From the NCBI RefSeq assembly GCF_046105845.1, contig NZ_CP151004.1: DNA of 64,000 nucleotides, one strand, 5' to 3'. This DNA is from Escherichia coli. GTDB taxonomy: Bacteria > Pseudomonadota > Gammaproteobacteria > Enterobacterales > Enterobacteriaceae. Position numbers and translations under genes: made by a program. Within the stretch, counting starts at the first letter, position 1; every line of letters begins with the position of its first letter. The notes below the pieces were generated by a model. It was given only the letters and a program-made list of their open reading frames with translations, made no database searches and had not been told where the DNA came from. Positions 41,881-42,366 of this stretch are shown here, piece after piece.

Positions 41881-42366
41881 ATGAATAACTTTGTTGAAAT
41901 TACCTCAAGAATTGGTCGCATGTACCAAGATTTTCTTATAAGTGGAAAGGGGTCTGGCGACATCATAGAGGAAATTGACAAGCTAAGTGCAGAGCTGAGA
42001 AGGAATGGGTGTGTTAATTCTATCTTTTTTGAAACTTTGCTAAAGCAAGGCTTCATGTTTGACATGATTAATTACAACAAAGTCGCACCCAGTGCTTCGC
42101 AAAAATCATATGTGTACGTTCTGCATGCTGAAGATAGTGGGCTAACAAAAATAGGGTTTAGTCGCAGGGTTAATAAACGAATTTCAGAGATATCTCGCAT
42201 GAGTGGTGGGAAGCTAAATCTAATTGCAAAGATTCCGGCCGATAGAGAGCTTGAAACCAAATTGCACCAAAAATATTACAACTATAGGTCGCACGGGGAG
42301 TGGTTTAGTCTCAATCGTTGTCATTTGAAAGAGCTAAAAGAAATGCCTGGTAACGAACTGAAATAA
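41881..42366 (+). CDS. T5orf172 / GIY-YIG-like domain protein (161 aa), moron
   Basis: C-terminal region YVYVLHAEDSGLTKIGFSRRVNKRISEIS...ADRELETKLHQKYYNYRSHGEWFSL fits the T5orf172 pattern (KIG...R...E..LH...EWF); GC visibly lower than flanking late genes. Confidence 0.65.
   Translation: MNNFVEITSRIGRMYQDFLISGKGSGDIIEEIDKLSAELRRNGCVNSIFFETLLKQGFMFDMINYNKVAPSASQKSYVYVLHAEDSGLTKIGFSRRVNKRISEISRMSGGKLNLIAKIPADRELETKLHQKYYNYRSHGEWFSLNRCHLKELKEMPGNELK

Follow-up and report, generated by a model that had tools for sequence, protein, structure and literature searches.

A T5orf172/GIY-YIG family gene in the rha slot of an Escherichia coli P22-like prophage: exchange of whole ORFs behind a conserved leader hairpin

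The stretch of Escherichia coli DNA analysed here (64,000 nucleotides of contig NZ_CP151004.1, referred to as the window) contains host genes and, after them, a P22-like (Lederbergvirus-type) prophage. Between its lysis and packaging genes the prophage carries an ORF of 161 aa. This ORF fills the position that lambdoid and P22-like phages use for rha, kilA-N or a T5orf172 gene as interchangeable cargo, here called the rha slot. The slot was shown to be a socket made of four parts: an intrinsic terminator, a hairpin of ∼90 nt that sequesters the Shine-Dalgarno (SD) sequence, an ATGAA start context and a conserved trailer. A first-pass annotation of this DNA had placed the gene in a variable slot, and this was borne out by comparison with related phages, in which the three types of cargo are exchanged ORF for ORF. 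For the cargo in the window we tentatively propose, judging from its sequence and at slightly less than an even chance, a late-expressed two-domain endonuclease that may serve in conflict between phages and mobile elements, possibly in the manner of a homing endonuclease.

The features of the region are listed in Table 1. The ORF starts with ATG, preceded by an AAGG SD sequence 8 nt upstream, and was found, as described at first pass, as a single gene following Rz/Rz1 and preceding the packaging genes (the order being S, R, Rz/Rz1, the ORF, the DUF2560 gene, small ORFs and terS/terL). It lies at the close of the lysis cassette, within the Q-dependent late operon, whose direction it shares, and a lambda-type Q is found upstream. 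The GC content of the ORF is 39.1%, compared with 50.8% for S-R-Rz, 50.0% for terS-terL and 46.1% for the whole prophage, and GC3 is 0.40 against 0.51–0.55 in the neighbouring genes; the AT-richness relative to the lysis genes that had been noted earlier is therefore real. The distance from the Rz stop (41537) to the ATG is 343 bp, in keeping with the 340-bp leader originally described, but this interval is not one leader, as it comprises a 50-codon ORF, the terminator and then a true leader of ∼145 nt. Equivalents of the 50-codon ORF are annotated as 'hypothetical protein' in epsilon34, Sf101, Sf6 and E. coli W, and the ORF is missing in strains D7 and VTB97584v, though the putative nuclease gene is present there. 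No sigma-70-like promoter was found on the + strand between 41737 and 41880 by a simple consensus scan. The gene does not have the build of a moron, with a promoter and terminator of its own, as the terminator lies upstream rather than downstream and the scan of the leader gave no promoter.

Table 1. Features of the prophage region surrounding the 161-aa ORF (positions in the window).
Feature	Position	Strand	Remarks
Q	39233–39856		lambda-type
S	40290–40613		
R	40597–41073		
Rz (i-spanin)	41070–41537	+	last lysis gene; equivalents annotated as Rz-like spanins in HK620, Sf6 and epsilon34
Rz1	41290–41496		within Rz
50-codon ORF	41525–41677	+	hydrophobic N-terminus; epsilon34 gp67/Sf6 gp65 type
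Intrinsic terminator	41711–41736	+	stem-loop 41711–41730 (8-bp stem, 4-nt loop), then TTTTTT; consensus scan
Slot leader hairpin	41781–41872	+	long, imperfect, conserved; RNA fold and covariation
T5orf172/MUG113 (GIY-YIG superfamily) gene	41881–42366	+	Pfam, phrog_4284
N-terminal domain, aa 1–70	41881–42090	+	predicted three-helix bundle, apparently family-specific
C-terminal T5orf172/GIY-YIG domain, aa 76–154	42106–42342	+	
Conserved trailer	42377–42511	+	downstream recombination flank; its end is the downstream module boundary
Second variable slot	42512–42640	+	adjoins trailer; 129-bp insert in the window
Micro-ORF, 23 codons	42543–42614		preceded by GAAGGAG SD sequence; inside the 129-bp insert
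DUF2560 (hkbM-type) gene	42720–42962	+	conserved downstream neighbour
terS	43730–44257		
terL	44254–45666		

Breakpoints were located by comparing the window with epsilon34, Sf101, HK620, HK106 and Sf6. Upstream, homology with Sf101 (carrying rha), HK620 (kilA-N) and HK106 (a 30%-identical T5orf172 gene) extends to 41885, the end of ATGAA. Downstream, it restarts at the stop codon (42364) in Sf101, at 42377 in HK620 and HK106 and at 42386 in Sf6. As homology breaks at ATGAA and at, or within 11–20 nt of, the stop codon, the exchanged unit is exactly the ORF. The 135-nt trailer is 95–100% identical in epsilon34, Sf101, HK620, HK106 and Sf6; Sf6 has kept the trailer, while its terminator, leader and cargo are all missing. 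The same socket carries rha in Sf101, phi80, Hafnia, CobraSix and Stx-type phages, and kilA-N in HK620 and S107. The Rha (phi80 rha, P22 orf201) and KilA-N (HK620 hkbK) cargo, of 160–185 aa, has a terminator, hairpin leader, ATGAA and trailer identical to those of the T5orf172 gene, whereas the encoded proteins belong to unrelated folds and families and sequence similarity ends after the first two codons.

T5orf172 genes of at least 99% identity were found behind three leader variants, namely type A (the window, epsilon34 and E. coli W), type B (strain D7; this is the type of HK620, HK106 and phi80) and a hybrid (strain VTB97584v), and the crossovers between leaders fall within ∼25 nt around the SD sequence and start codon. 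Homology between the window and strains D7 and VTB97584v starts exactly at the terminator, at 41711, and the terminator is the upstream boundary of the exchangeable module. In D7 this homology ends at 42516; in VTB97584v, where the gene is truncated, it stops inside the gene at 42315. The carriers E. coli W, D7 and VTB97584v differ in their Rz genes and in their terminases (P22-type, PBSX-type and DUF2280-type). No carrier-specific polymorphism that might mark a protected target or homing site was found in the leader or trailer.

The trailer was also considered as a structured RNA and rejected, its fold (42367–42520) being no better than that of shuffled sequences (z −0.19). For part of it, the epsilon34 annotation notes a resemblance to the N-terminal end of ST64T orf118. 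The second slot is 23 bp in epsilon34, Sf101, HK620 and HK106 and contains a Gp49-family gene in Sf6 and E. coli D7; the 129-bp insert of the window also occurs in phages HK544 and Emek.

The leader was detected in 166 phage records, most often with rha behind it, among P22-like, phi80, HK97-like and Stx-converting phages and in phages of Salmonella, Klebsiella, Enterobacter, Hafnia, Erwinia and Providencia. It was also present, unannotated, in at least 551 of 5426 E. coli genomes. As the T5orf172 gene was found in 57 of these genomes, it is a minority cargo, filling about one E. coli socket in ten.

The terminator-like hairpin reported upstream of the gene at first pass proved to be an intrinsic terminator that is also annotated in epsilon34 (as rho-independent), HK106 and phi80, and its stem pairs covary across phages through compensatory changes. 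The longer hairpin that follows folds as a single sequence at −66.8 kcal/mol (z −2.8). In the consensus structure of terminator and hairpin, built from 14 phage leaders, 95.3% of cells were paired, compared with 39–52% when the partners were slid by 1–3 columns. Compensatory double changes were seen in 12 of 26 pairs against 4.1 ± 1.4 in column shuffles, and none of 500 shuffles reached the observed value. G-U pairs, for example one position that is U-G in 11 sequences, favour an RNA read from the + strand. A base stem pairing CTTT...AGAAAG with CTTTCT.AAAG was recovered on realignment, and the SD sequence of the cargo gene (AAAGG, 41868–41872) is in the 3′ strand of the base of the hairpin. 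In Stx-type leaders, whose sequences were inspected by eye, the two mismatches of the window version become proper pairs. A covariance model gave a single match in the window (41777–41884, 121 bits), with no further copy of the hairpin within the window, and Rfam searches with the leader and trailer returned only sub-threshold chance matches.

Two ORFs overlapping the leader were examined as candidate genes and rejected. Both the reverse-strand ORF at 41693–41860 (55 aa, with an HTH-like SQAQLSERLGI) and the forward upstream ORF at 41814–41888 are broken by 1-nt indels between leaders that are otherwise 97–99% identical, and neither had a match in PHROG, NCBIfam or PADLOC; both are by-products of the inverted repeat. 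The simplest reading of the leader sequences is that any cargo in the slot would be translationally restrained by the hairpin, a restraint that RNase III cleavage, a factor or coupling might lift.

The protein is 100% identical to gp68 of Salmonella phage epsilon34 (YP_002533529), gp64 of g341c and a protein of phage NM-3. These three Salmonella phages are the only distinct ones with the identical protein among sequenced phages (5 records), and the phage copies bear the RefSeq/PGAP label 'GIY-YIG nuclease family protein'. In both epsilon34 and g341c the gene (PHROG 4284) is in the same place, with Rz, gp67 and the terminator before it. Over the 1 kb around the gene, epsilon34 is 99% identical to the window, the differences being that the 3′ end of Rz in the window diverges upstream of 41502 and that the window has the 129-bp insert in the next slot. 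All the copies in the 57 E. coli genomes (complete genomes, E. coli W included) are single-copy, chromosomal and given the same label by PGAP, and 56 of the 57 are at least 99% identical. The epsilon34 genome paper does not discuss gp68, and no reported function was found in the literature searched. Judged by these matches, the gene is already catalogued and auto-annotated and is not new. The first-pass annotation had allowed that it might be a common conserved late gene of this phage group; with 57 of 5426 E. coli genomes and three distinct phages carrying it, it is not a common core late gene.

Two earlier statements about the family had to be revised. A stand-alone T5orf172 protein had been called unusual, but a domain search of 1.84 billion cluster representatives yielded 5717 matches (E ≤ 1e-3), with proteins of 90–200 aa numerous among the best 150, so that a small stand-alone protein of this type is ordinary. 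Fusion to Bro-N or KilA-N had been called usual, but T5orf172 proteins of phages are reported to have, for the most part, zinc-finger DNA-binding domains of the CapR/DUF723/DUF4397 types instead (PMC10448857), and Bro-N, KilA-N and Rha are here the alternative cargo of one slot, not fusion partners. The two-domain subfamily is itself small, with about a dozen representatives at 25–40% identity, a clade at ∼60% and the type represented by HK106 gp64, which was found in Salmonella and Klebsiella prophages. HK106 gp64 and these prophage relatives (162–163 aa) have the same architecture of a helical N-terminal domain and T5orf172, and in HK106, an HK97-like siphovirus, the gene is in the same slot behind the same leader. 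The HK106 protein is, however, only ∼30% identical, the packaging genes differ and the downstream neighbour is an HNH endonuclease; some HK106-type alleles are truncated or have GGWF instead of GEWF. Among the decayed copies are truncations, the VTB97584v pseudogene and a GGWF allele (114 member sequences). Three more distant members were placed, at intergenic sites in late operons: one in the same post-Rz slot (P0009), one after tail tube and chaperone genes beside KilA-N/P63C and an Arc/Arc/Bro-N immI-like cluster (P0018), and one amid apparent tail genes (P0016).

The assignment of the C-terminal part to T5orf172/GIY-YIG, made at first pass from motifs, was confirmed by Pfam, with matches to MUG113 (PF13455, E 7.5e-13, aa 90–154, model positions 2–71 of 73) and T5orf172 (PF10544, E 1.7e-9, aa 77–154, model positions 2–95 of 101). 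These domains are also precomputed for every full-length homologue. The whole protein belongs to phrog_4284 (1.4e-75), to which no function is assigned in PHROGs, and a second match was to PHROG 875 (1.4e-6). No NCBIfam model matched the 161-aa protein. PADLOC returned only PDC-S57 (E 4e-4) and PDC-M64B (0.034); PDC-S57 covers aa 74–145, the GIY-YIG core, and no defence model was matched beyond this generic shared domain.

The motif pattern VY...KIG...R...E..LH...R..GEWF is present. Y79, K90-I91-G92, R100, E125, H129 and E140-W141-F142 were invariant in 18 family members of 24–62% identity, as was L128-H129, with R136 nearly invariant, and the same core residues were invariant in 34 diverse T5orf172 proteins. 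Since the GIY-YIG core is invariant across the family, a nuclease role is plausible. A confident AlphaFold model built with the 18-member family alignment (pLDDT 93) predicts the order beta-beta-alpha-beta-alpha-beta-alpha for the C-terminal domain, with a three-stranded sheet flanked by helices that conforms to the GIY-YIG alpha/beta fold, and the nearest likenesses of the predicted structure are the GIY-YIG nucleases SLX1 and I-TevI. Profile alignment to the I-TevI catalytic domain, with a query sequence verified against 1mk0/1ln0, was marginal (hhalign probability 10%) and paired Y79 with Y6, K90-I91-G92 with Y17-V18-G19 and R100 with R27. From the order of secondary-structure elements rather than an alignment, E125, which opens the helix that follows beta3, probably corresponds to the catalytic E75 of I-TevI, and by the same order GEWF probably occupies the position of G88-Y89-N90. 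The protein differs from the classical enzymes I-TevI and SLX1 in having KIG, with Lys90 for the second Tyr, and, on this reading, GEWF where I-TevI has GYN; all T5orf172 domains have Lys in place of that Tyr. A PDB sequence search with the family profile gave only designed helical repeats and a marginal match to UPF0213. The C-terminal domain is strongly basic, at about +7 by a count made by eye on the translation. In a comparison with a homologue of 61% identity, pN was 0.27 and pS 0.72, a value at which synonymous sites are saturated; as pN is well below the saturated pS and both values are similar in the two halves, both domains are under purifying selection.

The N-terminal part is modelled as a three-helix bundle (helices 3–21, 25–41 and 47–68; AlphaFold) with a net charge of about −1, counted by eye. 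It had been described as featureless, and Pfam gave no match for the N-terminal 72 aa even when these were submitted as a 13-sequence alignment. No zinc finger, HTH or other DNA-binding signature was seen, although the domain may still bind DNA, and it has a single Cys. A word-indexed single-sequence search and tblastn against phages returned near-identical copies only, and a profile search recovered only proteins of ∼160 aa with the same T5orf172 domain, or their truncations. These data suggest that the N-terminal domain is family-specific and occurs only fused to this T5orf172 subfamily.

In the function that we propose, the T5orf172-type GIY-YIG module would carry out catalysis and the three-helix bundle would set the oligomeric state, the partner or the choice of target. 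Transcription is probably confined to late lytic growth, to judge from the co-orientation with the late operon, the upstream terminator and the leader scan; polymerase modified by Q would read through the terminator, and the leader hairpin would hold translation down. The protein might then cut competing genomes, either those of co-infecting or resident relatives that lack the gene or those of satellites, acting like a free-standing homing endonuclease or like the anti-satellite nuclease Odn. The cassette could be spread by the breaks or simply by recombination in the conserved flanks. Endonuclease activity is presumed by analogy, the precedent being Odn (Gp88) of phage ICP1, an origin-directed anti-satellite nuclease with a T5orf172 domain whose E180A mutant loses cleavage (PMC8263062). 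Like the window protein, Odn joins T5orf172 to an N-terminal domain that is not a zinc finger, and its variable neighbours are rha-like and Bro-N genes; it is a proven nuclease that acts in a conflict between mobile elements (PMC8263062). The N-terminal domain of Odn is a copy of RepA_N that dictates the target, whereas for that of the window protein no relatives were detected beyond its own family. Features that speak for a selfish or mobile nuclease are the low GC content, the near-identity of the copies from E. coli and from Salmonella phages, set in flanks that differ, the sporadic distribution, the decayed copies and the placement of more distant family members elsewhere in late operons.

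T5orf172 genes have been described as phage homing endonucleases at genetic-exchange boundaries, with a terminase gene in 35% of neighbourhoods (Barth et al., 2023; PMC10448857). Those of ICP1, T5-like and other phages share with the window gene the catalytic family, a modular two-part build and, being free-standing at mosaic boundaries and often beside terminase genes, the type of location. Sporadic presence combined with near-identical copies in diverged backgrounds, as expected of a homing endonuclease gene, was observed here. However, 87% of the phage T5orf172 homing endonucleases have zinc fingers (CapR/DUF723/DUF4397 repeats; PMC10448857), in place of which the window protein has a three-helix bundle with one Cys. 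No separate sequence-specific DNA-binding domain could be recognised from motifs in this bundle, which is neutral to acidic, and this argues against a classical homing endonuclease, as does the replacement of another ORF by the gene rather than its addition between genes. The absence of carrier-specific polymorphism from the leader and trailer and the Lys in place of the second Tyr also weigh against the proposed function. Homing is also not needed to explain the mobility, because the non-nuclease cargo rha and kilA-N uses the same boundaries and recombination in the flanks suffices.

A rather doubtful but serious alternative is that the protein is an accessory regulator that binds DNA without cutting it and acts like the Rha and KilA-N proteins of the same slot, for example by late modulation of replication or expression in the host, in its own phage or in competitors. 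In other phages rha or kilA-N occupies the identical socket; T5orf172 belongs to one domain-shuffling network with Bro-N, KilA-N and Rha, and DNA binding was the function originally predicted for it (cited in PMC8096241). The basic charge of the C-terminal domain fits such a role, I-TevI doubles as a repressor, and a common allele of an HK106-type homologue (P0168) is without the Glu of GEWF. Nevertheless, the invariance of the catalytic core, both in the family and in distant T5orf172 proteins, is unexpected if only binding mattered. A shared slot is also no proof of a shared function, as Gp49-family genes and genes auto-labelled 'anti-CRISPR' are found nearby in other phages.

It is unlikely, though worth stating, that the slot and its cargo form one system in which the rha slot would be a socket dedicated to exchange and gated at translation, with the T5orf172 protein as a partner-dependent nuclease. 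The hairpin would silence potentially toxic DNA-targeting cargo (Rha, KilA-N or T5orf172) until a late signal, for example cleavage by RNase III or a phage factor, and the three-helix bundle would recruit the nuclease to a protein on the DNA of a competitor phage or satellite rather than to a DNA sequence. The hairpin was found in no fewer than 10% of complete E. coli genomes and, among phages, in those of at least six enterobacterial genera. If correct, protein-guided recruitment would be a mode of targeting not described for GIY-YIG enzymes.

It is slightly less probable again that the gene encodes a nuclease for prophage defence or superinfection exclusion, expressed in the lysogen and cutting incoming phage DNA or triggering abortive infection. 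The absence of a sigma-70-like promoter from the interval between terminator and ATG, the burial of the SD sequence in a conserved hairpin and the embedding of the gene co-directionally in the late operon all argue against expression of this kind, and the protein had no NCBIfam match and a PADLOC match to the shared domain only. Finally, a structure-specific endonuclease that trims branched or junction intermediates of replication and recombination before packaging, its N-terminal bundle binding a partner as SLX1 needs SLX4, is highly improbable, as the slot is dispensable and usually filled by rha or kilA-N, junction nucleases of the nin region are already present (NinG/Rap in epsilon34, RusA in the E. 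coli W prophage) and the likeness to SLX1 is limited to the shared GIY-YIG core.

The gene belongs to the T5orf172/GIY-YIG family as a catalogued but uncharacterised member, and its own stakes are modest. The family is emerging as a common source of phage homing endonucleases and conflict nucleases, yet nearly all study of it has been on Vibrio phage ICP1; epsilon34, g341c and the prophage of E. coli W offer a useful, tractable example in E. coli and Salmonella, with an architecture that lacks the usual zinc fingers. The slot architecture and the leader hairpin are more unusual than the gene. The slot illustrates how lambdoid phages shuffle accessory DNA-binding and DNA-cutting genes with ORF precision, behind a structured leader that occludes the SD sequence, and the hairpin, the most interesting by-product of the analysis, suggests a cis-regulatory RNA that is widespread and without a family in Rfam.

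The content of the rha slot, the site following Rz in lambdoid and P22-like phages, was compared across phage and prophage loci, and the features located are listed in the table below. The comparison shows that cassette exchange at this slot is ORF-precise. The T5orf172 cargo comes as two highly divergent genes, and these, like rha and kilA-N, share the ATGAA start and the same end at the trailer, the conserved 3' flank. Three variants of the leader, which comprises a terminator and a hairpin, precede one and the same T5orf172 gene, and crossovers lie at most about 25 nt from the Shine-Dalgarno sequence and start codon.

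Features of the rha slot and of the compared loci
Feature	Coordinates	Strand	Details
50-codon ORF overlapping the Rz stop	41525-41677	+	very hydrophobic N-terminus
Conserved ~90-nt leader hairpin	41781-41872 (covariance-model match 41777-41884)	+	covariation
Junctions of the exchanged ORF	41881-41885 (5') and 42364-42386 (3')		comparison of loci L001-L005 and L019-L021
Conserved trailer, 135 nt	42377-42511		sequence comparison
45-codon ORF	42466-42603		
Second variable slot, directly downstream of the trailer	42512-42640		129-bp insert in the window
23-codon micro-ORF MSAEGFNNPSKFRDEWDSSVKSK	42543-42614		inside the 129-bp insert; strong GAAGGAG Shine-Dalgarno ahead
Annotated rha CDS, phi80	L010 1032-1586		
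Annotated rha CDS, CobraSix	L012 1020-1574		
Locus of the 37%-identical family member	L007 4001-8327		GCA_046521305.1, contig JBKGFN010000001.1

The leader hairpin has strong covariation backing and was found in 166 phage records and in at least 551 of 5426 E. coli genomes. Rfam has no family for it, and E. coli RefSeq records leave it unannotated. The base of the hairpin sequesters the Shine-Dalgarno sequence of the slot's occupant, whichever ORF this is. In phi80 and CobraSix, the annotated rha start precedes the conserved ATGAA by about 40 nt, lies within the 3' arm of the hairpin and has probably been called too far upstream; rha is annotated from the ATGAA in Sf101, Hafnia and Lyz12581Vzw.

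The trailer is 95-100% identical among P22-like phages and HK106, even where both neighbours differ, and its predicted RNA fold was no better than that of shuffled sequence. The 45-codon ORF begins inside it; the epsilon34 annotation notes a similarity to the N-terminus of ST64T orf118. The 129-bp insert of the second slot recurs unchanged in phage HK544 and at 97% identity in Salmonella phage Emek. In that slot Sf6 and E. coli D7 hold a Gp49-family gene, and phage Huey has, at the corresponding position, a gene of equal size automatically labelled 'anti-CRISPR'. At the Rz end, the 50-codon ORF may encode a small membrane peptide as an appendage of the lysis cassette. Annotations list its product as a hypothetical protein in epsilon34 (gp67), Sf6 (gp65), Sf101 and E. 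coli W; other genomes with the nuclease gene lack the ORF.

Family members show decay (proteins P0165, P0167, P0168, P0169 and P0177): several copies are frameshifted or truncated, and in E. coli VTB97584v the window's gene is present as a C-terminally truncated pseudogene (L021 3501-4022). In one allele of the HK106 type, the ~30%-identical homologue, the Glu of the C-terminal GEWF motif is replaced by Gly (P0168; 114 member sequences, mostly from Salmonella). A 37%-identical member follows tail tube and chaperone genes, with a KilA-N/P63C gene and then an immI-like cluster (Arc/Arc/Bro-N) directly downstream. This locus is another example in which KilA-N and Bro-N genes accompany T5orf172 as neighbours, not as fusions.
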